From Bacteroidales bacterium (GTDB lineage Bacteria > Bacteroidota > Bacteroidia > Bacteroidales > P3): a stretch of 64,000 nucleotides of DNA. This document shows positions 2,426-58,401 of the stretch, piece after piece; positions within the stretch are counted from its first letter, which is position 1, and every line of letters starts with the position of its first letter. The notes beneath the pieces were generated by a model that was not told the DNA's origin, did no database searches, and was given only the letters and a program-made list of their open reading frames with translations. The stretch lies in contig JAFUGA010000027.1 of the NCBI GenBank assembly GCA_017469625.1, forward strand, positions 7,628-71,627, read 5' to 3'. A program made the position numbers and the translations under genes.

Positions 2426-2698
2426 CAAAATTTCGCTCGTGTGTAACTTTGTTTTAATTTTCTATCTCTTTGTTTTAATTTCACGAAACAAAGAAAGAGA
2501 ATTCTAAAACTTTGTTTTAATTTTCTGAAACGAAGAGATAGAAAGTTAGAATCAAGTTCTACGAAATTAAAACAAAGTTCTACAAAAATAGAATAAAGAG
2601 ATAGAATTTTAAAACGAAGTTACATACGAGCGAAACAAAGTTTTGCGAGCGTGAAACAAGACTTTGTGAGATTAAAATCAAGTTTTATTTTATTCGGG
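2426..2698. repeat. phased 21-bp repeat array, copy A (13 units, about 200-bp palindromic core)
   Basis: Parses without gaps into 21-mers starting at 2426, 2447, 2468 ... 2678, e.g. CTTTGTTTTAATTTTCTATCT, CAAAGTTCTACAAAAATAGAA and TAAAGAGATAGAATTTTAAAA. Segment 2431-2457 is the reverse complement of 2609-2635 at 25/27 positions. Confidence 0.9.
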
Positions 2699-2854
2699 TC
2701 TTACAGGTCAGCAAAAACTTTAAGGAGTTTAAAATAAAAACAAAATTTGGTAAATTTTTTTTTGTGTCTAATAGTTTGATAATCAAAGAATAGACTTAAA
2801 ATTCTCTTTCACCCACAAAAAAAAATCAACAAAAAACGTAACCTTAAAGACGAA

Positions 2855-2905
2855 AAAAACGTACCAAACAAACATTGCTTTGTGCAGTTTGTTTGGTACG
2901 TTTTT
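2855..2905. terminator. perfect 19-bp stem hairpin with flanking A/T runs (bidirectional terminator-like), core of a longer palindrome 2824-2930
   Basis: AAAAACGTACCAAACAAAC (2855-2873), a 13-nt loop, then GTTTGTTTGGTACGTTTTT (2887-2905). Outer arms AATCAACAA...TTGTTGATT extend the pairing. Confidence 0.4.
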
Positions 2906-3388
2906 CAGTCAAAGGTTAAACTTGTTGATTTTCATTATTTTCCGATTTTTCACAAAATTTTCATTTTTTAGGTTTTTACTACTGTTAAAACTTTGTGCAG
3001 AAATACAGTAACATAATAAAATTTTTACTCTGAAACATAAAAATCAAATTGTTTTCATTATCTTATTATTATACTGTGTTTTGTAGAGATATTATCTTTT
3101 GATAATAAACTCTTTTTTAAGAATAACTATGTTATTTTTTAATAAACTCTATAAGTTTAATTCTTTTATAGTTAGTTATTTACAAAGTTTAACTAAAGTA
3201 GTACTTTATGTAAATCTTGTAATATATCTGTAATATAGTGAATTAACTATTTTTATTTTAACAATATATCTTAAAAAATAACTTATAACATTATAAAACA
3301 ATCGTTTATATTGATTACCTCAAGTAAATTACTTTAGGTAAACCTTGTAACATATATGATAAACAAGTAATTAACTTTTTTTTACTTA

Positions 3389-5230
3389 CTATTCTTTTTC
3401 TGTATGGTAAAAATTCCAAACCTTTAGAGCTTTGCTTTTGCCGATACAGTCTGTTAAGGATTGTAGAGTAGCAATTTTTATCTTCTCTACAGAAGAGAAT
3501 TTTAGCAATAAATCTCTCGCTGTTTTTTCTCCTATACCCTCTATATCTGTAAGTTGTGTCTTAAAAGTGGCTTTGCTTCTCTTATCTCTATGGAACGTTA
3601 TACCAAATCTATGAGCCTCGTCCCTTATATGCTGAATTATTTGCAGAGTATGGCACCTTTTGTCCAAACAAATAGGTATTGGGTCGTTTGGAAAATAAAT
3701 CTCTTCCAATCTTTTTGCCAAGCCTATGACGGTAACCTTGTCCAAAACACCGGCTTTTTTCAATGCCTCGCAAGCACTGTGCAACTGTCCTTTTCCTCCA
3801 TCTATTACGATAAGGTCTGGCAAAGGTTTGCCCTCGTTTTCCAAACGTGAATACCTCCTATAGACTATCTCACGCATAGAAGCGAAGTCATCGGGTCCTA
3901 CAACTGTTTTTACGTTGAAATGTCTGTACTCTTTGTTTGACGGTTTGCCCTCACGGAAGACAACACAAGAGGCAACAGGGTTAGTTCCTTGAATATTAGA
4001 GTTATCAAAGCATTCTATATGATGTGGAGGTTTTTCAAGGTGAAGGTCTTTCTGCATCTCCAAAACAACTTTATTGCTCCAACGTTCAGGGTCAAGTATC
4101 TTGGCTTTTTTTATCTTTTGATTTCTGTAAAACAATGTGTTATGCAAAGAAAAATCCAAAATCTTTTTCTTCTCACCAGAAAGAGGTACAGTCTGCAAAA
4201 CATAGTCTTTTGGTAAATCTAAATACTCTGGTACTATGATTTCTTTGCTCAGCCACCCTTTGTCTATACGGTTCTGAACTATAGCCATAGTAAAGGTTTC
4301 CAAAGCAGAAATATCAAGTTTCTTTTCTATACTTACAGAAAATGAAGTGTTTATCTTGCCCTCAACAACCTTAGTCATATTCATATATATCTTGTCGCTG
4401 TCGTCTATAAAAGAGTAACATTCTATCTCTTTCACGGTGTTGGAAACTATGGCACTCATAGCCGAATAGTTTTCCAACAAGGTTATCTTCTCTTTTATTT
4501 GCTGGGCTTTTTCAAACTGTAGTTTGTCGGCGTATTCCATCATCTTGTCTTTCATTTCATTGAGATAAGAAGAGAAATTGCCCTTGATTATCTGTCGTAT
4601 TCCGTTTATTTCCTTATGGTATTCCACTCGGGATTGTTCGCCTGTGCAAGGGGAAAGACAAAGTCCTATTTGTGCATTCAGACAAGAAGAGTATTTGCCC
4701 TTGTTTATGCTTTCTTCTGTAAGAGGTAGGTTACAAGTGCGGTAAGTGAAAACTCTACGAATTAGGCTCAAAAGTTCTTTAAGTATCTTACCACTTGGAT
4801 AAGGTCCATAATACTGAGAACCGTCTTTGACTTGATGTCTTGTAGAATAGATTTTAGGAAACTCTTCGTTGGTAATCCTTATCCACGGATAAGTTTTGTC
4901 ATCTTTGAGCATTATGTTATACTTTGGTTGAAACTTTTTTATAAGGTTGTTCTCCATAAGAAGAGCCTCTGTTTCAGTATTAACATGTATGAATTTTATA
5001 TCCGCAATCTTTCTTACAAGTATCTGAGTTTTAAGACTATGCTGTGTATCGTTGCGAAAATAGGATAGTACTCTTGCTTTCAGATTTTTTGCCTTGCCTA
5101 CATAGATTATCTTCCCATTCTTGTCAAAATACTGATACACTCCCGGAGTAGATGGTAAAGAGGCAAGAATGGGAAGAATGTGTTGATTGTAAGGGTTGTT
5201 CTCAAGAATTTTGTATGGATTATTTAGCAT
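3389..5230 (-). CDS. uvrC: excinuclease ABC subunit C
   Basis: 613 aa. GIY-YIG motif (GVYQYFDKNGKIIYVGKAKNLKARV), central UVR/endonuclease region, C-terminal helix-hairpin-helix (IEGIGEKTARDLL). Confidence 0.95.
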   Translation of the reverse strand: MLNNPYKILENNPYNQHILPILASLPSTPGVYQYFDKNGKIIYVGKAKNLKARVLSYFRNDTQHSLKTQILVRKIADIKFIHVNTETEALLMENNLIKKFQPKYNIMLKDDKTYPWIRITNEEFPKIYSTRHQVKDGSQYYGPYPSGKILKELLSLIRRVFTYRTCNLPLTEESINKGKYSSCLNAQIGLCLSPCTGEQSRVEYHKEINGIRQIIKGNFSSYLNEMKDKMMEYADKLQFEKAQQIKEKITLLENYSAMSAIVSNTVKEIECYSFIDDSDKIYMNMTKVVEGKINTSFSVSIEKKLDISALETFTMAIVQNRIDKGWLSKEIIVPEYLDLPKDYVLQTVPLSGEKKKILDFSLHNTLFYRNQKIKKAKILDPERWSNKVVLEMQKDLHLEKPPHHIECFDNSNIQGTNPVASCVVFREGKPSNKEYRHFNVKTVVGPDDFASMREIVYRRYSRLENEGKPLPDLIVIDGGKGQLHSACEALKKAGVLDKVTVIGLAKRLEEIYFPNDPIPICLDKRCHTLQIIQHIRDEAHRFGITFHRDKRSKATFKTQLTDIEGIGEKTARDLLLKFSSVEKIKIATLQSLTDCIGKSKALKVWNFYHTEKE

Positions 5231-6830: not shown

Positions 6831-8102
6831 ATGAAAAGGATAATAACAATATTATTAGTATTGCTTTTAGTCGCACCTTGTGTTTCTGCTCAGACTGTAA
6901 AGAAAAAGAAAAAGAAGGTGAAAAAGCAAGAAGTTGTTGAGAAACCTTTGGAAATTGCACTTCCACCACGTTCGGCGGATTGTTTGTTTGCGATGTCTTT
7001 GATGTTGGATTCTGCTTTTGGACCAACAGAACCATTGCAGGGAGCAGGATTTGTGGAAGATATAAAAAGAGATGCTCAAACCAAAAATGTTTTTGAACAA
7101 GAACATAACACAGTTTGGTACAAAATAGATTGTCCTTATAGTGGAAAACTTATTATAGATATAAAACCAAAAAGTGAATTGGACGATTATGATTTTTTGG
7201 TTTATAAATATACAGACAAATATTTTTGCAATAGGGTAGAGAAGAACAGAGTTAAACCTATAAGAAGTGTTATGTCTTCTGTAAATGGTACTCTTAAAGG
7301 TGCAACAGGTCTTTCTCTTACAGGTACTTCTGCTTTTATTTCTAAGTCTTCTACAGATGCTTATGGAAAATATATAGATGTAGAACAAGGAGAGTCCTAT
7401 ATAATTGTGCTTGACAATTTGCAAGACGGAGGTTTGGGACACACTATAAAGGCAGAGATTTATACTCAACATCATCCTTTGTATATAAATCCAATAGATA
7501 GTATTGCAAAACAAAGAACTACCGCTAACATAAGAGTAAAAGAAAGTGGTACAGATATAGAAATGCTTAACGTTATAGATGCCGGTAGCACTAAGATAAA
7601 ACTTCTGCCAAACAAATCATACGATATTTATGTTACAAAGAATGGTTATTTCAATTATTTCAGACATATATCTTACGATGATGCAACAGGTAAAGATACT
7701 ATCCTTACAGTAAGACTTTCTGAGATAAAAGTAGGTTCAAATATTCCTTTGAAAGGTGACCTTTATTTTGAAGAAAAAGAAGATGGTACAGTGGCTATGT
7801 TACCAGAAAGTAACGTTGTTTTGGACGATATAGTTAAGACTTTGTTATTGTACCCTAATATAAATGTAGAAATAGTTGGAAGAATAACAACTGATGGTTT
7901 AGACCTTAGAAAAGATAACGAGAATTCAAAGAAAAGAGCAGAGGCTATAAAAGAATATCTTGTATCTGAAGGAGTACCAGAATCAAATATTACTACAAGA
8001 GGTTCTTCAAACAAAGAACTTTTGAAGCAGATAGATAATCAAAACAAGTTGAACTCTACTATATTTCCACGTTGTGAAATAATAATAAAGAGTTTAAGAT
8101 AA
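6831..8102 (+). CDS. OmpA-family protein (signal peptide, lysine-rich linker, C-terminal OmpA-like peptidoglycan-binding domain)
   Basis: 423 aa. Signal peptide ...APCVSAQ followed by TVKKKKKKVKKQ. C-terminus NVEIVGRITTDG...NSKKRAEAIKEYLVSEGV is OmpA_C-like. Confidence 0.7.
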   Translation: MKRIITILLVLLLVAPCVSAQTVKKKKKKVKKQEVVEKPLEIALPPRSADCLFAMSLMLDSAFGPTEPLQGAGFVEDIKRDAQTKNVFEQEHNTVWYKIDCPYSGKLIIDIKPKSELDDYDFLVYKYTDKYFCNRVEKNRVKPIRSVMSSVNGTLKGATGLSLTGTSAFISKSSTDAYGKYIDVEQGESYIIVLDNLQDGGLGHTIKAEIYTQHHPLYINPIDSIAKQRTTANIRVKESGTDIEMLNVIDAGSTKIKLLPNKSYDIYVTKNGYFNYFRHISYDDATGKDTILTVRLSEIKVGSNIPLKGDLYFEEKEDGTVAMLPESNVVLDDIVKTLLLYPNINVEIVGRITTDGLDLRKDNENSKKRAEAIKEYLVSEGVPESNITTRGSSNKELLKQIDNQNKLNSTIFPRCEIIIKSLR

Positions 8103-8225
8103 AAAAATGATAAATTTATTTTATTGAAACACAGAGAAAAACAAAAAAAAATAAAAATTTTTTAAAAAAATATACAATAATAAAATAAACTTAACGTTTT
8201 AGACTTGTTCTTAGAAAGAAAATAA

Positions 8226-8296
8226 TGTCCCATAGTGTAGTGGCAACACGAGAGATTCTGGCTCTCTTAACTCAAGTTCGAATCTTGATGGGACAA
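8226..8296 (+). tRNA. tRNA-Gln (anticodon CUG)
   Basis: Manual cloverleaf. Acceptor 8226-8232 pairs with 8289-8295 (U1-A72). D stem 8235-8238/8246-8249. Anticodon stem 8251-8255/8263-8267 with loop TTCTGGC (CTG at 8258-8260). T stem 8272-8276/8284-8288 with loop TTCGAAT. No encoded CCA. Confidence 0.8.
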
Positions 8297-8301
8297 CAAA
8301 G

Positions 8302-8339
8302 GGAGGTAATTTTTAAAAGTTATCTCCTTTATTTTTTTT
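8302..8339 (+). terminator. rho-independent terminator after tRNA-Gln
   Basis: GGAGGTAA (8302-8309) pairs with TTATCTCC (8320-8327, one G-T pair), followed by a T-rich run. Confidence 0.55.
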
Positions 8340-8599
8340 ATAATGATTATACTCTGTTAGGATAAGTATATACTATGCTATTACATATATTTCTATTACA
8401 ATAACTAAGTATTCATCTTATGAAATTTTTATACATTTTCTTAACACTTCCGCACCACCTTTGCACAACAAGTAGTGAGTTGTTCAAGATTTAGAGATAA
8501 GTTTTTTAATTCTATTTTTTGTAAAAGAAACTTTTGTATTTAGATAAAAAAAAGACGATAACAAAATTACCGTCCCAATAAAAAGAGAAAAATTATCGT

Positions 8600-9127
8600 T
8601 TAATCAATCAATGTACTTAAATCAAAATACATAGGAATAGTAACACTTTCTACAGGTTTCTCTTTTAATAAAGGACGAAAACCATTATGTTGATAAAAAC
8701 CTATAGCAGAAGGTAATGCATCTACCGTAACAAAACAACAACCTGTACGATTGTTTGTAACAAATAATCTTTTGATAAAGTAAAGAATTTCAGAGCCTAA
8801 ATTATGTCTTTGATAATTTTTACTAATACCTAAACGTCCTATCTTAACAGCAGGATAATCTTTTCTATGTTTGCGATGTGGAAAAATATTTTTAATCTTT
8901 CGCCATGTTGCCTTATCAGAATCTTCAAATGAAATTCTGTCATTTGAAACAGAGAAGTAACCTACAATATCTTGGTCTGTCTCTATAATATATGTAACAG
9001 ATAAAAGATGTTTTAAATAATTTTTTGCATCATTAAGTAAAAAATCATTTAAATCTCCTTCACCACAATCAAAAGAAGAAAAATGGTAATCTTGTGTCAA
9101 TCTTACAATTCTTATGTTATCTTCCAT
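8600..9127 (-). CDS. GNAT-family acetyltransferase, TacT/AtaT-like toxin architecture
   Basis: 175 aa. N-terminal FDCGEGDLNDFLLNDA motif. Acetyl-CoA region IGRLGISKNYQRHNLGSEIL and VDALPSAIGFYQHNGF. This layout is typical of GNAT toxins of type II TA systems. Confidence 0.7.
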   Translation of the reverse strand: MEDNIRIVRLTQDYHFSSFDCGEGDLNDFLLNDAKNYLKHLLSVTYIIETDQDIVGYFSVSNDRISFEDSDKATWRKIKNIFPHRKHRKDYPAVKIGRLGISKNYQRHNLGSEILYFIKRLFVTNNRTGCCFVTVDALPSAIGFYQHNGFRPLLKEKPVESVTIPMYFDLSTLID

Positions 9128-9133
9128 ATATTT

Positions 9134-9292
9134 TTATATGTCAAACGTAAGCCAAGACTTTAATTTTTGATAAGCCTCTTCCATTTTCTCTTTTTCTTCT
9201 TGCGACACCTTTTCAGCTTCTTCCATTGCCTTAACGAAGTTAAACGCATCTTCGCCTTTTAGTACAGGTGTTGGTTCTATTGGTCTTGCCAT
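9134..9292 (-). CDS. 52-aa acidic helical protein, candidate partner/antitoxin of the GNAT (not in ORF track)
   Basis: Hand translation: MARPIEPTPVLKGEDAFNFVKAMEEAEKVSQEEKEKMEEAYQKLKSWLTFDI. The stop lies 6 nt before the GNAT ATG. Confidence 0.45.
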   Translation of the reverse strand: MARPIEPTPVLKGEDAFNFVKAMEEAEKVSQEEKEKMEEAYQKLKSWLTFDI

Positions 9293-9302
9293 AATTTTGT
9301 TT

Positions 9303-9407
9303 TTATTTACTTGTTTGTTTCTTATTTTGTTTGTTCTCTAAATGGATAAACAAACAACCTATAAGCACACATACAATCAACAATATAAAACTAACATACG
9401 CATTCAT
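9303..9407 (-). CDS. 34-aa single-TM hydrophobic peptide (not in ORF track)
   Basis: Hand translation: MNAYVSFILLIVCVLIGCLFIHLENKQNKKQTSK. AGGAG lies 7 nt upstream. Gaps are 15 nt to the upstream ORF and 10 nt to the downstream ORF. Confidence 0.3.
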   Translation of the reverse strand: MNAYVSFILLIVCVLIGCLFIHLENKQNKKQTSK

Positions 9408-9422
9408 TATAAACTCCTTTCT

Positions 9423-9620
9423 CTATTCTTTACTTTCTTTTGTAAAATATAATCCTAATATCAATACACCTACAACAGCAACACATATTAAGATATGTGT
9501 GATTGTATTCCAATCCCCAATTCCGTTAAACCACGTTGATAACAATACCGCAGTCATTAAATACTTTGCAATATCCATCAACCATTTTCCGAATTCTTTT
9601 TTCATTTTATCTTCTTTCAC
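9423..9620 (-). CDS. 65-aa two-TM small membrane protein
   Basis: MKEDKMKKEFGKWLMDIAKYLMTAVLLSTWF...ILICVAVVGVLILGLYF. First ORF of a tightly spaced 4-ORF minus-strand cassette. A promoter box lies immediately upstream. Confidence 0.45.
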   Translation of the reverse strand: MKEDKMKKEFGKWLMDIAKYLMTAVLLSTWFNGIGDWNTITHILICVAVVGVLILGLYFTKESKE

Positions 9621-9624
9621 ACTG

Positions 9625-9632
9625 CAAAGTTA
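9625..9632 (-). promoter_or_regulatory. -7 promoter box TAACTTTG, 4 nt upstream of the ATG at 9620
   Basis: Plus strand reads CAAAGTTA. Same TAnnTTTG-N4-ATG geometry as at 2208-2215. Confidence 0.4.
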
Positions 9633-9698
9633 CAAAATGTTTTACTTTTAGCAAGTATAAACTCCAATTTTTCAGAGAGAAAAGGTAGAATTTATATA

Positions 9699-9909
9699 TA
9701 AAGTTTCGTTTTCTTGTAACTTTATTTTGAAAATTCTCTTTCTTTGTTTCGCTATTCTGAAACTTTGTTTTAGAATTCTATCTCTTTGTTTTAATTTTCT
9801 ATCTCTTTGTTTTAGAAAATTAGAATCAAGTTCTACGAAATTAAAACGAAGTTCTACAAAAATAGAATAAAGAGATAGAAAATTCTTTCTTTGTTTTAGA
9901 AAAATGAGA
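9699..9909. repeat. phased 21-bp repeat array, copy B (about 10 units)
   Basis: Units start at 9720 (22 nt), then 9742, 9763, 9784, 9805, 9826, 9847, 9868 and 9889. Examples: CTTTGTTTTAATTTTCTATCT, TCAAGTTCTACGAAATTAAAA, CGAAGTTCTACAAAAATAGAA. Confidence 0.9.
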
Positions 9910-9960
9910 TAAAGTTGTATTCAGATGGGGTAAAAAATTGTTAGTTTGATTAAAAAGTAT

Positions 9961-9968
9961 TAACTTTG
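9961..9968 (+). promoter_or_regulatory. -7 promoter box TAACTTTG upstream of the polysaccharide locus
   Basis: TAnnTTTG match 88 nt upstream of the ATG at 10056. It is the only such box between repeat B and the first locus gene. Confidence 0.45.
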
Positions 9969-10055
9969 CACCTCATTTTTAATATATTTCTTTTGTTAGT
10001 CTATGGGACTGACAGGGCTTTGCCGTTTTTGGATGTTAGGTCTTAAAGGTGTTAA

Positions 10056-11591
10056 ATGCTTGAAAATAATTTAGATAGTAAAAGAATAGCCAAAAATACA
10101 CTTATTCTCTACATCAGGATGTTTATCTTGATGATAGTGAATTTGTATATCAGCAGGGTTGTTTTGCATGTGTTGGGTGAAGACGACTATGGAATTTACA
10201 ATGTCGTTGGGGGTGTGGTGGCTATGTTCTCTATACTTTCACAATCTCTTTCTACTGCTGTTAGTAGGTTCATTACCTTTGAGTTAGGTAAAGGAGATAA
10301 GAACAAACTTAAGACTATATTTTCCACATCTCTTATAATACAAATACTTATGGCTCTAATTATCATAATCTTAGCAGAAATTATAGCGGTGTGGTTTCTA
10401 AACAACAGAATGAACATTCCATTGGGAAGGTTAAGTGCTGCTAATTGGGTGTTACAGTTTGCGATAATGTTGTTTGCTCTAAACCTTATAAACGTACCTT
10501 TTAATGCTTGCATAATAGCGCACGAAAAAATGAGTACCTTTGCATACGTTTCTTTGTTGGAAGCTGGTTTGAAACTGTCTGTTGCATACCTTATTACAGC
10601 CACGTCTATGGATAAACTAAAGGCTTATGCTCTTTTGCTTTTATGTGCAGATATGGTAATAAAAGGTATTTATATTATCTATTGCAGACGAAAATTTGAA
10701 GAGTGCAGACTTTCTTTTACTTTTGATAAAAAACTTTTGACAGAATTAGGGTCTTTTGCCGGTTGGAATTTAATAGGTAATGGAGTGTGGATACTTAGTA
10801 CTCAGGGAGTTAATGTGCTTACCAATATGTTTTTTCACGTAAAAGTAAATGCAGCACGAGGTATAGCCGCACAGGTAGATAGTGCTGTGCATAAGTTTGT
10901 TGGCAATTTTTCTTTGGCTCTTTCTCCTCAGATAACGAAATCTTATGCTATGGGTGAGAAATCTTATATGCATTCGTTGATAATAAGAGGCTCAAAATAT
11001 TCTTATTTTCTTATATTTTTCTTTGCTCTTCCTATATGTTTGGAAACTGAAACGGTGTTGGATATATGGCTACACAAGGTACCGGAATATTCTGTTATCT
11101 TTGTGAGGTTGAGTTTTATAGGTACACTTTGTACAGTTTTAGCAGATACACTTGTAAAGAGTATGTTGGCAACAGGAAAGATAAAAAAATATCAAATAAT
11201 TGTGGGAACGGTTGCTTTTTTGGATTTTCCACTTACTTATTTGGTCTATAAATTAGGTTGTTCCCCTGTTTCAGCATATATAGTTTTCATAGCGGTTTAT
11301 TTTGTACTGATATTTGTGCGACTGTATCTTGTGAAGGATTTAATAAACCTGAAACCCTCTTTGTATTTGAAAAACGTGTTGTTAAGAGTTTTTGAAGTAT
11401 CTCTTGTAGCCTGTGTGTTGCCACTGATTATAGTTTTATTGCAACCTCAATCCATGCTAAGACTATTTGAAACTTTGGTAGTAAGTTCTTTAAGTGTATT
11501 GACAACAATATACTTCATAGGTATGGAAAAGAATGAGAGAGAGTTTGTTGTAGAAAAAATCAAAACAAGAATAAATAAATTACGTCCATGA
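10056..11591 (+). CDS. wzx: Wzx-type polysaccharide flippase (MOP superfamily), copy 1
   Basis: 511 aa, hydrophobic throughout with many predicted TM helices. Typical polysaccharide-biosynthesis-protein N-terminus (KNTLILYIRMFILMIVNLYISRVVL). Confidence 0.75.
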   Translation: MLENNLDSKRIAKNTLILYIRMFILMIVNLYISRVVLHVLGEDDYGIYNVVGGVVAMFSILSQSLSTAVSRFITFELGKGDKNKLKTIFSTSLIIQILMALIIIILAEIIAVWFLNNRMNIPLGRLSAANWVLQFAIMLFALNLINVPFNACIIAHEKMSTFAYVSLLEAGLKLSVAYLITATSMDKLKAYALLLLCADMVIKGIYIIYCRRKFEECRLSFTFDKKLLTELGSFAGWNLIGNGVWILSTQGVNVLTNMFFHVKVNAARGIAAQVDSAVHKFVGNFSLALSPQITKSYAMGEKSYMHSLIIRGSKYSYFLIFFFALPICLETETVLDIWLHKVPEYSVIFVRLSFIGTLCTVLADTLVKSMLATGKIKKYQIIVGTVAFLDFPLTYLVYKLGCSPVSAYIVFIAVYFVLIFVRLYLVKDLINLKPSLYLKNVLLRVFEVSLVACVLPLIIVLLQPQSMLRLFETLVVSSLSVLTTIYFIGMEKNEREFVVEKIKTRINKLRP

Positions 11592-12645: not shown

Positions 12646-13869
12646 ATGAAAAAAGTTATAATCTTCACACAACCTTTACGCATCAATTTTGGAGGAATAC
12701 TCCAAGCCTATGCTCTTCAAAAGACAGTAAGAGATTTAGGTTTTGATGTTATAACAGATAATCCTACTTTGAGAAGAAGATCTTTAATAGTTATATTAAA
12801 AGACTATGCAGCAAGGTTCTTTTATGGAGTTTTGAAAAACGATGACAAATATAAACCTTTTTTCAAAAAACGAGTGAAAAAAGAAGATTATGAAGTTATA
12901 TCTCGTAATCCTCAGAGGTTTATAAAAGAAAATATAAGGACTGTAGATTTTTTTTGCGGAAAACGACATCCTGATAAAAACAAAATAAAACAATACGATA
13001 TATATATAGCAGGTAGCGACCAAGTTTGGCGAAGAAGATATGCAGATGTTAAAAGATATTTCTTTGATTTTTTGGACGATGATTCTATAGATAGATTTTC
13101 TTATGCGGCTTCTTTTGGAGTAGATAATTTGAACGAGTATTCATTGGAAGAAAAGCAGATTTGCAAACAACTTGTTAAGAAATTCAAAGCCGTAAGCGTT
13201 AGAGAGTCCTCTGCAATAGATATTTTGAAAAAAGAGTTTGACCAAGAGGCAGTCTTGGTTTTAGACCCTACTATCCTATTGACAAAAGAGGATTATCTAA
13301 AACTTTGTTCTAATTTTTTAGAATCAAGTTCTACAAACGTAGAATCAAGTTTTAGAAAATTAAAACAAAGTTCTACAAACGAAGAAAAAGGAGATAAAAA
13401 ACGTATGTTTTGTTATGTCCTTGACCAAACAGAACAGACGGGTACTTTGACAAAAAAACTTGCTACTTATTTAAATATGGATACTGAGGGTGTAGGAGTT
13501 AAAGAAAATGTAGATTCAAAAGCCGAAGATATAACCCAATATATACTTCCAGATGTAGAGAAATGGATAATGATGTTTGATGATAGCGATTATATCTTTA
13601 CGGATTCTTTTCACGGTACAGTATTCTCCATTATTTTCAATAAACCTTTTGTAGTCATAATCAATAAAATAAGAGGTGGTTCAAGGTTGTATTCTTTGCT
13701 TTCTTTGTTAGGGTTGGAGGGTAGGATAATAAATTCTGAAGAAGATTTGACAGAGGAGTTTCTAAATCATCTTTACGATATAGATTACGAAAAAGTAAAT
13801 AAAAAGAAAGAAGAACTAAGAGAGTTTTCTTTGAATTATCTTAAACGTGCTTTAGGAGTAGAAGAATAA
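12646..13869 (+). CDS. polysaccharide pyruvyl transferase carrying an in-frame 21-bp-repeat insertion
   Basis: 407 aa. GGILQAYALQKTV, IAGSDQVWRR and TDSFHGTVFSIIFNKPF motifs shared with the paralog at 26694-27898. An extra segment SNFLESSSTNVESSFRKLKQSSTNEE is encoded by repeat units. Confidence 0.8.
   Translation: MKKVIIFTQPLRINFGGILQAYALQKTVRDLGFDVITDNPTLRRRSLIVILKDYAARFFYGVLKNDDKYKPFFKKRVKKEDYEVISRNPQRFIKENIRTVDFFCGKRHPDKNKIKQYDIYIAGSDQVWRRRYADVKRYFFDFLDDDSIDRFSYAASFGVDNLNEYSLEEKQICKQLVKKFKAVSVRESSAIDILKKEFDQEAVLVLDPTILLTKEDYLKLCSNFLESSSTNVESSFRKLKQSSTNEEKGDKKRMFCYVLDQTEQTGTLTKKLATYLNMDTEGVGVKENVDSKAEDITQYILPDVEKWIMMFDDSDYIFTDSFHGTVFSIIFNKPFVVIINKIRGGSRLYSLLSLLGLEGRIINSEEDLTEEFLNHLYDIDYEKVNKKKEELREFSLNYLKRALGVEE
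13303..13386. repeat. phased 21-bp repeat array, copy C (4 units, inside a CDS, in frame)
   Basis: CTTTGTTCTAATTTTTTAGAA / TCAAGTTCTACAAACGTAGAA / TCAAGTTTTAGAAAATTAAAA / CAAAGTTCTACAAACGAAGAA. These are the same unit types as the intergenic arrays. Confidence 0.85.
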
Positions 13870-19610: not shown

Positions 19611-19619
19611 AAATAAAAC

Positions 19620-19808
19620 TTTGTTTTAATTTTCTAAAACTAAGAAAGAGATTTCTAAAACTTTGTTTTAATTTCGTAGAACTTGATTCTAATTTTCTAA
19701 AACGAAGAGATAGAATTCTAAAACAAAGTTCTACGAAATTAAAACAAAGAGATAGAAAATTAAAACAAAGTTCTACAAAAATAGAATAAAGAGATAGAAA
19801 AATAAAAG
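19620..19808. repeat. phased 21-bp repeat array, copy D (9 exact-register units) between fnlB and fnlC
   Basis: CTTTGTTTTAATTTTCTAAAA / CTAAGAAAGAGATTTCTAAAA / CTTTGTTTTAATTTCGTAGAA / CTTGATTCTAATTTTCTAAAA / CGAAGAGATAGAATTCTAAAA / CAAAGTTCTACGAAATTAAAA / CAAAGAGATAGAAAATTAAAA / CAAAGTTCTACAAAAATAGAA / TAAAGAGATAGAAAAATAAAA. Confidence 0.95.
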
Positions 19809-19815
19809 TAAAATT

Positions 19816-20985
19816 ATGGATTACAAACATATACAGTTCAAAAACAACGGTAAATTAAAACTCCTTATAATAGTAGGAACAAGACCTGAAATCATACGTT
19901 TGGCAGCCGTTATAAACAAATGTAGAAATTATTTTGATACTATTTTGGCTCATACGGGACAAAATTATGATTATAACCTTAATGGGATATTTTTTAAAGA
20001 TTTAAAACTTCAAGATGCTGAAGTTTATATGAACGCTGTTGGCAATGATTTGGGACAAACCATAGGAAACATTATAGCAGAGTCTTACAAACTTATGGTG
20101 GATATAAACCCAGATGCTTTGTTGATATTGGGCGATACAAATTCTTGCCTTTCTGCTATAGCAGCAAAACGTTTGCATATACCTATCTTTCACATGGAGG
20201 CTGGAAACCGTTGCAAAGATGAATGTTTGCCAGAAGAAACCAACAGAAGAATAGTAGATATAATCTCAGATGTAAATCTTGCATATTCAGAACACGCAAG
20301 AAGATATTTGGCAGAATGTGGTTTGCCAAAGGAAAGAACGTATGTTACCGGTTCTCCTATGGCAGAGGTTCTTAGAAACAACTTACAGGAGATAGAATCT
20401 TCGCAAATACTTGATAAATTGGGATTAAAGAAAAAAGGGTATATACTTTTATCTGCTCATAGAGAAGAAAACATAGACACAGAAAAGAATTTCATATCCT
20501 TATTTACTGCCATAAACAAATTGGCAGCAAAATATGATATGCCTATACTTTATTCTTGCCACCCAAGAAGTAAAAAAAGATTGGAACAAAGCAAGTTTGA
20601 ACTTGATAAACGTGTAATACAGCACGAACCATTGGGATTTCATGACTACAATAACTTGCAAATGAATGCTTTTGCGGTAGTTTCAGACAGTGGAACTTTG
20701 CCAGAAGAAAGTAGTTTCTACACTTCTTTGGGTAAAAGTTTTCCTGCTATCTGCATAAGAACGAGTACAGAACGCCCAGAGGCTTTGGACAAGGCTTGTT
20801 TTGTGCTTGCTGGTATAGATGAAAAAAGTTTGTTGCAAGCAGTAGAACTTGCAGTGGATATGAACGAAAACACCGACAACGGAATACCTGTTCCAAACTA
20901 CACAGACGAAAACGTATCAACCAAGGTTGTGAAAATAATACAATCTTATACAGGTATAGTAAATAAGATGGTGTGGAGAAAATAG
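19816..20985 (+). CDS. fnlC: UDP-N-acetylglucosamine/UDP-L-PneNAc 2-epimerase FnlC/CapG
   Basis: 389 aa. IVGTRPEIIRL, HTGQNYDY, LILGDTNSCL, FHMEAGNRC, SAHREENID, IRTSTERPE and VSTKVVKIIQSY all match the CapG/FnlC pattern. Confidence 0.9.
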   Translation: MDYKHIQFKNNGKLKLLIIVGTRPEIIRLAAVINKCRNYFDTILAHTGQNYDYNLNGIFFKDLKLQDAEVYMNAVGNDLGQTIGNIIAESYKLMVDINPDALLILGDTNSCLSAIAAKRLHIPIFHMEAGNRCKDECLPEETNRRIVDIISDVNLAYSEHARRYLAECGLPKERTYVTGSPMAEVLRNNLQEIESSQILDKLGLKKKGYILLSAHREENIDTEKNFISLFTAINKLAAKYDMPILYSCHPRSKKRLEQSKFELDKRVIQHEPLGFHDYNNLQMNAFAVVSDSGTLPEESSFYTSLGKSFPAICIRTSTERPEALDKACFVLAGIDEKSLLQAVELAVDMNENTDNGIPVPNYTDENVSTKVVKIIQSYTGIVNKMVWRK

Positions 20986-31090: not shown

Positions 31091-31195
31091 CTTTATTTCG
31101 TGTTTCTATCTCTTTGTTTTAATTTTCTCTTTCTTTGTTTTAGAAAATTAAAACAAAGCTTTAGAAAAATAGAATAAGGTTTTAGAAAATTGTAA
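31091..31195. repeat. phased 21-bp repeat array, copy E (5 units)
   Basis: CTTTATTTCGTGTTTCTATCT / CTTTGTTTTAATTTTCTCTTT / CTTTGTTTTAGAAAATTAAAA / CAAAGCTTTAGAAAAATAGAA / TAAGGTTTTAGAAAATTGTAA. Confidence 0.85.
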
Positions 31196-37732: not shown

Positions 37733-37778
37733 ATAAATTTGTCTTCTTTTTATAAGATTTTACTCTATTTTTACGAAA

Positions 37779-37883
37779 TATTGTTTCGTTCTCGTAAAGC
37801 TTTGTTTTAATTTTCTAAAACAAAGAGATAGAAAAATAAAACAAAGTTCTACAAAATTAAAACAAAGTTTCGCTGAAGCAAAA
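37779..37883. repeat. phased 21-bp repeat array, copy F (5 units)
   Basis: CTTTGTTTTAATTTTCTAAAA (37800) / CAAAGAGATAGAAAAATAAAA / CAAAGTTCTACAAAATTAAAA / CAAAGTTTCGCTGAAGCAAAA, preceded by a TTTCGTTCTCGTAAAG terminal-type unit. Confidence 0.85.
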
Positions 37884-37952
37884 CAAAATCTTATGTTTTT
37901 ATAATATAAGATAGACAAGGTACGTTAATAAGAAGATAGTATAAAATACAGA

Positions 37953-43805: not shown

Positions 43806-44070
43806 GAAACTTTGTTTTAGATTTATAAAAAGGTATTTTCGGACAAAAATATATTCTTTTTAGAATACTAAAAGGTATTTTAGAACACTATTTTTTAACT
43901 TTATTATTACAAAGTTTTCCTTGAATTTTCTAACTCTTTATTCTAATTTTCTAAAACGAAGAGATAGAAAATTAGAACGAAGTTCTACAAAATTAGAATC
44001 AAGTTTTAGAAAACTAAAACAAAGAGATAGAAAATTAAAACAAAGTTCTACAGAATTAAAACTTTGTTTT
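43806..44070. repeat. phased 21-bp repeat array, copy G (6 clean units at 43936-44061 plus a degenerate upstream part)
   Basis: CTTTATTCTAATTTTCTAAAA / CGAAGAGATAGAAAATTAGAA / CGAAGTTCTACAAAATTAGAA / TCAAGTTTTAGAAAACTAAAA / CAAAGAGATAGAAAATTAAAA / CAAAGTTCTACAGAATTAAAA. Confidence 0.85.
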
Positions 44071-53176: not shown

Positions 53177-53345
53177 CGAAGTTACATTCCTCACAGAACT
53201 TCGTTTTAGTTTTCTATCTCTTTGTTTTAATTTTCTAAAACTTCGTTTTAATTTCATAGAACTTGATTCTAATTTCACGAAACAAAGTTTTAGAATTCTA
53301 TCTCTTTGTTTTAATTTTGTAGAACTTTGTTTTGTAAAAGTAGAA
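53177..53345. repeat. phased 21-bp repeat array, copy H (8 units) between convergent genes
   Basis: Units start at 53199, 53220, 53241, 53262, 53283, 53304 and 53325. Examples: CTTCGTTTTAGTTTTCTATCT, CTTTGTTTTAATTTTCTAAAA, CTTCGTTTTAATTTCATAGAA, CTTGATTCTAATTTCACGAAA. The array ends flush with the stop codon of the 53346 gene. Confidence 0.9.
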
Positions 53346-58254: not shown

Positions 58255-58401
58255 CTTCGTTCTTTTTTCACGAAACAAAGTTTTAGATTTCTATTTCTTT
58301 GTTTTAATTTCACGAAACTTTGTTTTAGAATTCTATCTCTTTGTTTTAGAAAATTAAAACAAAGAAAGAGAAATTTAGAATCAAGTTTTATTTTACTGAT
58401 A
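58255..58401. repeat. phased 21-bp repeat array, copy I (7 units)
   Basis: CTTCGTTCTTTTTTCACGAAA / CAAAGTTTTAGATTTCTATTT / CTTTGTTTTAATTTCACGAAA / CTTTGTTTTAGAATTCTATCT / CTTTGTTTTAGAAAATTAAAA / CAAAGAAAGAGAAATTTAGAA / TCAAGTTTTATTTTACTGATA. Confidence 0.9.

Follow-up and report, generated by a model that had tools for sequence, protein, structure and literature searches.

A probable GNAT toxin-antitoxin pair with a widespread small partner family, adjoining an independent DUF6722 membrane-protein pair in a Bacteroidales genome

Introduction

GNAT toxins that acetylate charged tRNA form an established class of toxin-antitoxin (TA) systems, studied almost entirely in Proteobacteria and with antitoxins of the DUF1778 family, and autoregulation through antitoxin DNA binding is a hallmark of these GNAT/DUF1778 modules. 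GNAT TA systems and antitoxin swapping are both established concepts. Here we analyse a locus from a Bacteroidales bacterium (GenBank assembly GCA_017469625.1, contig JAFUGA010000027.1, positions 7,628 to 71,627 of the forward strand; this stretch of 64,000 nucleotides is referred to as the window, and its own numbering is used throughout) in which a gene for a GNAT acetyltransferase lies directly downstream of a gene for an acidic protein of 52 amino acids (aa). We consider it probable that the two constitute a type II-like TA pair, in which a new and widespread family without a detectable ribbon-helix-helix (RHH) domain would act as the antitoxin, beside an independent pair of small membrane-protein genes whose first member belongs to the Pfam family DUF6722.

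The closest description of such an arrangement is that of Bikmetov et al. 2022 (PMC9177977), who delineate a 'true TA clade', made up of GNAT toxins linked to DUF1778, together with a DUF4065-linked subclade, and who report TA-like bicistronic GNAT loci outside that clade with 'divergent' short upstream open reading frames (ORFs) lacking predictable DNA-binding domains; no family was defined for these short ORFs, which were left untested in that work. By description, the locus presented here fits their account of out-of-clade bicistronic loci. An original prediction, made from the nucleotide sequence of the window, had treated all four minus-strand ORFs of the region as one compact cassette and suggested a non-canonical TA or defence module, a suggestion that is reasonable for the 52-aa and GNAT genes and does not extend to the membrane peptides.

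Results

The last of the four ORFs (8600-9127, minus strand) encodes a 175-aa GNAT acetyltransferase of the TacT/AtaT/KacT/ItaT type, our candidate toxin, assigned by phmmer searches of PDB sequences, AlphaFold2 (AF2) modelling and Foldseek comparison. Pfam returns generic GNAT matches only. Among PDB sequences, the nine best phmmer matches are chains of AtaT, TacT3 and KacT (E-values of 3.6e-8 to 9.4e-6), followed lower down by GmvT, AtaT2, ItaT and TacT entries and then by generic GNATs at E>0.02. The AF2 model, built with 22 homologues, has a predicted local distance difference test score (pLDDT) of 85 and a predicted template modelling score of 0.81, and the top 38 PDB chains retrieved with it by Foldseek are all aminoacyl-tRNA-acetylating toxins (ItaT, AtaT, KacT, AtaT2, TacT1-3 and GmvT). 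These superpose with template modelling (TM) scores of 0.63-0.80 and root-mean-square deviations (rmsd) of 2.3-5.5, and the next GNATs follow at TM scores of about 0.5 and rmsd above 6; sequence identity to the solved toxins is 16-25%.

The functional motifs follow the same pattern. An FDCG motif at residues 19-22 leads into DLNDFL, so that FDCG..LN.FL spans residues 19-30, as it does in AtaT from residue 20 (FDCGEEALNLFL) and likewise in TacT3 (FDCGDADLNQFL); a P..V.IGRL strand is common to the aligned toxin matches, with GRLG at residues 97-100 here. The acetyl-CoA loop QRHNLG (residues 106-111) aligns with QGQGWG of AtaT, and Tyr145, at the catalytic position, aligns with AtaT Y144, the residue altered in the 'Y144F mutant' PDB entries; both the loop and the tyrosine are invariant or near-invariant in the 22 homologues. 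The earlier assignment of a TacT-like GNAT with an FDCG signature is thus borne out by phmmer and Foldseek for fold, sequence neighbours and active-site residues, and alignment and predicted model together indicate that the GNAT is kin to tRNA-acetylating TA toxins in its fold and in its active-site residues. The lineage is large, with more than 2000 clusters at 90% identity, and is present in rumen and human-gut metagenomes, in cultured Bacteroides (e.g. B. fluxus) and in one cultured Bacteroides phage.

Immediately upstream, the ORF at 9134-9292 (minus strand) encodes the 52-aa candidate antitoxin, with the N-terminal motif MA[RK]PIxxTP[VI]LxGxDAxxF and an isoelectric point of 4.7 that confirms its acidic character. 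At loci anchored on the GNAT (Bacteroidales and Rikenellaceae metagenome-assembled genomes (MAGs), GNAT identity 52-80%), a 52-56-aa homologue directly precedes the acetyltransferase in ten of ten cases, with unrelated flanks that include RNase Z-like and DnaK genes. Metagenome loci anchored on the small gene, recovered with a 10-sequence alignment since a broad alignment of 59 sequences was too degenerate, carry an adjacent GNAT in 68 of 80 cases, and in none of them is a DUF6722 gene found within 2.5 kb. The gaps between the small gene and the GNAT mostly fall between -4 and +20 nt (6 nt in the window), a 174-aa GNAT comes next even in a member of a divergent subfamily (P0125), and in P0365 the small protein reads through into the GNAT. 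The 52-aa protein and the GNAT are, in short, a robust two-gene unit without the membrane ORFs. Its layout is that of generic type II TA modules, with co-directional small genes, the candidate antitoxin first and adjacency kept across distant genomes, and its distribution is likewise patchy and mobile, encompassing differing sites, phages and paralogous copies; judged from sequence, such features are in keeping with a toxin whose cognate antidote binds it directly. Tandem divergent pairs occur in L105 (1615-3212) and L111 (2501-4417), within about 1-2 kb, and their small proteins differ in the C-terminal tails.

The small protein defines a family of considerable size. A word-seeded search with the 52-aa sequence yields only five relatives; a hidden Markov model (HMM) profile of these extends the family to 578 clusters (50%-identity representatives, E<=1e-3), nearly all of 48-60 aa. 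Over 59 sequences, M1, P9 and G13 of the N-terminus are invariant and A2, P4, I5, T8, L11, D15, A16 and F19 are conserved in at least 90%, followed by variable C-terminal halves that frequently end in hydrophobic tails (e.g. LLTFTF, IATFPM or IQWCW). The 52-aa protein has no match in Pfam, NCBIfam or PADLOC, the 59 family members have no consistent Pfam or NCBIfam match, searches of the PDB with the sequence and with the family profile return coiled-coil noise only, and every family member that bears a source name is called 'hypothetical protein'; four of ten members are matched by phrog_13585, a PHROG of unknown function. We found no publication that describes this family. Two members of a '...FLxEC...YKK' subfamily, P0248 and P0409, are deposited under Candidatus Woesearchaeota archaeon MAGs, which suggests either a range beyond Bacteroidota or else binning contamination.

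As the original prediction had it, the 52-aa protein does not resemble RHH/DUF1778 antitoxins, with no match by HMM, by profile-profile comparison or by AF2 modelling from a shallow alignment. The AF2 model, obtained with an alignment of five sequences (pLDDT 70), shows an extended N-terminus and one long helix (residues 13-50) and no RHH fold. Homology to DUF1778 was considered through hhalign comparison with AtaR, KacA and TacA (PDB sequences) and rejected, the alignment being insignificant (P=0.07) and covering 17 columns of the C-terminal part only; it pairs VLKGEDAFNFVKAMEEA with ILNEESWTRVMDALSNP, which lies in the toxin-neutralising part of AtaR, and is at this P value a lead only.

The two proteins co-vary. 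Across 61 non-redundant pairs, the identity of the C-terminal half of the small protein correlates with that of the GNAT (r=0.78; Mantel test, 0/999), and the mean identity of the N-terminal 22 aa is 65% vs 47% for the GNAT. The genes also differ in their integrity: at the 74 small-gene-anchored loci with enough downstream sequence, the GNAT is intact in 49, fragmentary in 17 and missing in 8, and the small ORF is always intact. An asymmetry of this kind would be expected if the GNAT is a toxin and the small protein its antidote; the figures behind it, 25 of 74 loci without an intact GNAT and 10 of 10 GNAT loci keeping the small ORF, come from samples that differ in size and anchoring, with assembly errors possible. 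Remnants of this kind, comprising N- or C-terminal GNAT fragments or interrupted genes beside intact small ORFs, are seen in L048, L050, L066, L068, L086 and L101. In L112 (1955-2906) a small-protein member is followed by a Fic/DOC-family protein (E=1e-21, overlapping ORF call) in place of the GNAT, an arrangement that could, speculatively, reflect antitoxin-toxin partner swapping.

These observations bear on an alternative in which the GNAT is an ordinary acetyltransferase with another substrate, and the small protein acts as its substrate, as a subunit conferring specificity or activation, or as a regulatory partner; the invariant Ala2 N-terminus of the small protein, for example, could itself be acetylated. 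An alanine at position 2 in at least 90% of the small proteins is what would be expected if the processed N-terminus matters, the partner has no recognisable antitoxin domain, and the NCBI names are limited to 'GNAT family N-acetyltransferase' or 'hypothetical protein'. We nevertheless consider this alternative unlikely, given that TA toxins alone make up the nearest relatives of the GNAT in sequence and structure, other GNATs being clearly set apart, that the pair is found at genomic sites unrelated to one another, on phages and as tandem paralogues, and that the GNAT is often decayed beside an intact small gene, which is hard to explain if the small protein merely serves the enzyme.

The arrangement of the four minus-strand ORFs in the window is as had been described, at 9620-9423, 9407-9303, 9292-9134 and 9127-8600 with intergenic gaps of 15, 10 and 6 nt. 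A Bacteroidetes -7-type promoter box (TAnnTTTG), TAACTTTG at 9632-9625 on the minus strand, was recovered by a pattern scan that gave 159 matches in the window vs 106 expected, and no other box of this type precedes any of the four ORFs on this strand. It does lie 4 nt before position 9620, as predicted; the codon there, taken to be the first ATG, is a GTG. From its sequence and position, TAACTTTG is the probable promoter of the DUF6722 pair. Elsewhere, homologous small gene-GNAT pairs have a TAnnTTTG box within 100 nt upstream of the small ORF in 79 of 94 cases, at a distance of 20-39 nt from the ATG in 61 of these. In the window no such box is found between 9293 and 9624 on the minus strand, and only 10 nt separate the 34-aa second ORF from the 52-aa ORF; the 52-aa/GNAT unit is therefore probably transcribed here by read-through from the promoter at 9632-9625. 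A single transcript of all four ORFs is accordingly plausible on the sequence of this locus, as a trait of this locus only and no conserved property. As an internal GNAT promoter, a TACGTTTG box at 9149-9142 (minus strand), 14 nt before the GNAT ATG, was considered and rejected, a comparable box being present in 1 of 94 pairs; it probably results from the codons that specify the LTF tail of the 52-aa protein.

The tight spacing behind a single recognisable promoter box, with probable co-transcription, and the absence here of the promoter box that the 52-aa/GNAT pair has elsewhere, are what might be put forward for all four ORFs being one functional unit, in which the membrane peptides would be integral, for instance as sensor or effector, to a novel GNAT TA or defence system; in several contexts, moreover, DUF6722 pairs have TA-type genes of other kinds as neighbours (RHH-YafQ, PIN and Gp49/HigB-HTH). 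Against such a unit, none of 90 small-protein/GNAT loci has a DUF6722 gene nearby (within 2.5-4 kb), the GNAT is absent from all DUF6722 loci examined, in seven other lineages, and the DNA homology to the nearest relative, L001, spans exactly 9295-8588, that is the 52-aa and GNAT genes only, ending 3 nt upstream of the 52-aa start codon. The co-occurrence census has already largely refuted a four-gene system, which we regard as very improbable. The region consists of two mutually independent gene pairs in head-to-tail order, which we call unit A (9605-9303) and unit B (9292-8600), and the tight packing of the four ORFs is a local juxtaposition rather than a conserved system. Co-occurrence had been proposed as the check on the single cassette: it upholds the joint conservation of the 52-aa protein and the GNAT, and finds the membrane ORFs never with the GNAT elsewhere.

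Unit A opens with a membrane protein with two hydrophobic segments that matches Pfam PF20482 (DUF6722; E=2e-13, 50.8 bits vs a gathering score of 27). Translation from the GTG at 9620 would yield 65 aa, and the ATG at 9605 is the most likely true start (feature 9423-9605, minus strand; 60 aa), because all homologues begin with MKKEFGKW and gene callers on same-species contigs give 60 aa. We collected 315 DUF6722 homologues, all of Bacteroidia type and starting MKKEFGKW. The companion ORF (9303-9407, minus strand) encodes a 34-aa peptide with a single transmembrane segment and a basic tail, MNAYVSFILLIVCVLIGCLFIHLENKQNKKQTSK, which has no family match in Pfam or NCBIfam and is uncalled on same-species contigs; its two named neighbours bear the consecutive NCBI locus tags IJ213_04300 and IJ213_04305. 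In every lineage examined (P0139, P0175, P0130, P0242, P0168, P0192 and one, L115, of two viral contigs), the gene that comes within a few nt after DUF6722 encodes a peptide of 32-40 aa with one transmembrane segment and a basic tail, e.g. MGAIFMSALVSIIAIVGVIYFNHQDKKEKGIK. The contexts of this pair include conjugative-element-like regions (DUF1896, RhuM, TraN-like DUF4138), sites beside Mfa/FimA fimbrial genes or between methylmalonyl-CoA mutase and pantothenate kinase, and sites adjoining RHH-YafQ, PIN or Gp49/HTH modules. Unit A is a widespread, autonomous Bacteroidia small-membrane-protein pair; we found no mention of DUF6722 in the literature searched, and the Pfam family has no function attached. 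In L020 and L023 the little transmembrane-peptide gene is present in five tandem copies (2688-3416).

Unit B also has a phage-borne form. The temperate Bacteroides salyersiae phage BS-TP1, which is in culture, carries the pair (L154, PQ571274.1 102518-103547; GNAT identity 48%) beside the integrase, with the terminase large subunit on the other side and the small ORF concealed within a longer annotated 'hypothetical protein', gp121; the GNAT matches phrog_1758 at 1e-39. Among 25 viral-contig matches to the small-protein family, a GNAT accompanies 10 and none accompanies the other 15. Orphan copies (on viral contigs L118, L120-L123 (2501-3280) and L137 (2501-3242)) keep the N-terminal motif and have divergent C-termini; for several of them, the next gene downstream encodes an endolysin (Phage_lysozyme, E=7e-27; Peptidase_M15_3). 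These phage copies may, speculatively, be anti-toxin decoys, or else have an unrelated phage role.

Such a distribution invites a refinement, compatible with the TA pair proposed above, in which the module serves chiefly in anti-phage abortive infection or prophage exclusion rather than as a housekeeping or persistence TA system, with the orphan copies as the phage counter. The many viral small-protein genes without a GNAT, the position of several of them before endolysin genes, the phrog_13585 matches and the intact pair beside the BS-TP1 integrase all point in this direction. Set against them are the lack of a match to any defence database model, the divergent C-terminal halves of the orphans, which would allow unrelated roles, and the possibility that IMG/VR contigs include host DNA, and we consider this refinement unlikely.

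Around the two units, a terminator-like hairpin with a T run lies at 8576-8552 (minus strand), 24 nt past the GNAT stop codon; the region holds three terminator-like sites vs 0.3 expected. A tRNA-Gln(CTG) gene at 8226-8297 (plus strand) is directly followed by a terminator-like hairpin with a 14-bp stem (8299-8330, plus strand), and a search of 8000-10200 finds no RNA family besides this tRNA. Over this stretch the window is 100% identical to two ENA metagenome contigs (L012 and L014); its proteins bear names from a Bacteroidales MAG, and the nearest relatives come from rumen samples. Repeat array B (9694-9920), which had been seen as bounding an accessory islet next to the tRNA, belongs to a dispersed repeat of which the 64-kb window holds at least eight further copies (2421-2640, 13292-13401, 19612-19816, 31091-31191, 37759-37887, 43923-44070, 53195-53345 and 58272-58388). 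The units of this repeat are about 21 nt long, e.g. CTTTGTTTTAATTTTCTATCT, and its copies are 70-85% identical to each other. With the repeat scattered throughout the window it was rejected as a boundary, and the tRNA gene was rejected as an integration site, a tRNA being nearby in 1 of 30 related loci, so that the islet is unsupported. A comparison with relatives carrying an empty site had also been suggested; no empty site was found, and only strains of 98-100% identity were recovered, all carrying the genes.

Discussion

The probable TA pair of unit B can be given a provisional mechanism. By homology, the GNAT most likely acetylates charged tRNA at its alpha-amino group with acetyl-CoA, which would block translation, and it is most likely neutralised through direct binding by the 52-aa protein, whose gene lies 6 nt upstream. 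The first 22 residues, which are hyper-conserved, probably make contact with a conserved region of the toxin or else with a host factor that is conserved, and the motif that they carry suggests an unusual mode of neutralisation. Cognate specificity probably resides in the variable helix of the C-terminal half, which terminates in a hydrophobic tail of xTFxF type and co-varies with the toxin. Expression of unit B in this genome would probably depend on read-through from the unit A promoter.

Several points weigh against this interpretation. The single-helix model of the 52-aa protein was built on only five sequences with a pLDDT of 70, and the layout of most relatives, an extended segment followed by helix, loop and helix, is size-compatible with a minimal RHH because most of them have a proline-containing break around residues 26-31. 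Co-variation of the C-terminal half could come from mere co-inheritance of linked genes, and some of the 'GNAT fragments' may be metagenome assembly errors. Among the products of the four ORFs, DUF6722 alone matches PADLOC-DB v2 models, and then at noise level only. Finally, Bikmetov et al. 2022 (PMC9177977) explicitly allow for other physiological functions of GNATs that lie outside the 'true TA clade', which also favours the reading of the GNAT as an ordinary acetyltransferase.

A bolder extension, to which we assign a low probability, would make the small protein a new minimal antitoxin class without a DNA-binding domain, whose invariant, processed N-terminus (Ala2-Arg/Lys-Pro-Ile...TPxLxGxDA) plugs the conserved aminoacyl/acetyl-CoA pocket as a pseudo-substrate and is perhaps itself acetylated, with the C-terminal helix conferring cognate specificity. 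The pair would then be an anti-phage or prophage-exclusion module of gut and rumen Bacteroidales, and the phage orphans beside lysis genes would be universal decoys exploiting the plug.

In any case, the locus points to a large parallel GNAT lineage in Bacteroidales. If the small protein is indeed the antitoxin, neutralisation, and perhaps regulation, of a TacT-type toxin would proceed without an RHH domain, a sizeable family would be added to the TA annotation of gut Bacteroidota, where its genes are now labelled 'hypothetical', and a testable case of possible phage-borne antitoxin decoys would be at hand.

With respect to known systems, the Pfam DUF6722 family matches the first ORF of the region only, and its constant pairing with a 32-40-aa transmembrane peptide was observed here. 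A 'GNAT-XAT' pair of the B. fragilis cfiA element (PMC9138018) was set aside as a counterpart of unit B, its proposed partner being a second acetyltransferase in a different architecture. The GNAT/DUF1778 systems (TacAT, AtaRT, KacAT, ItaRT and GmvAT) share with unit B the toxin fold and the closest sequence relatives, the FDCG..LN.FL motif, the GRL strand, the acetyl-CoA loop and the position of the catalytic tyrosine, a partner gene immediately upstream in the same orientation, and an occurrence on mobile elements and phages. They differ from it in that the partner here has 52 rather than about 90 aa and lacks any match to DUF1778/RHH when examined by HMM, by profile-profile comparison and by AF2, in the low identity of the GNAT to the solved toxins, and in the lack here of a visible basis for autoregulation through antitoxin DNA binding. 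VcaA-VcaT (DUF4065/Panacea-GNAT) likewise combines a GNAT toxin homologue with a different upstream gene in place of the canonical antitoxin, although the partner in unit B is not a DUF4065 protein. Unlike the out-of-clade loci of Bikmetov et al. 2022 (PMC9177977), finally, the upstream ORFs considered here form a single coherent family, which comprises 578 clusters and has a strongly conserved motif at the N-terminus.

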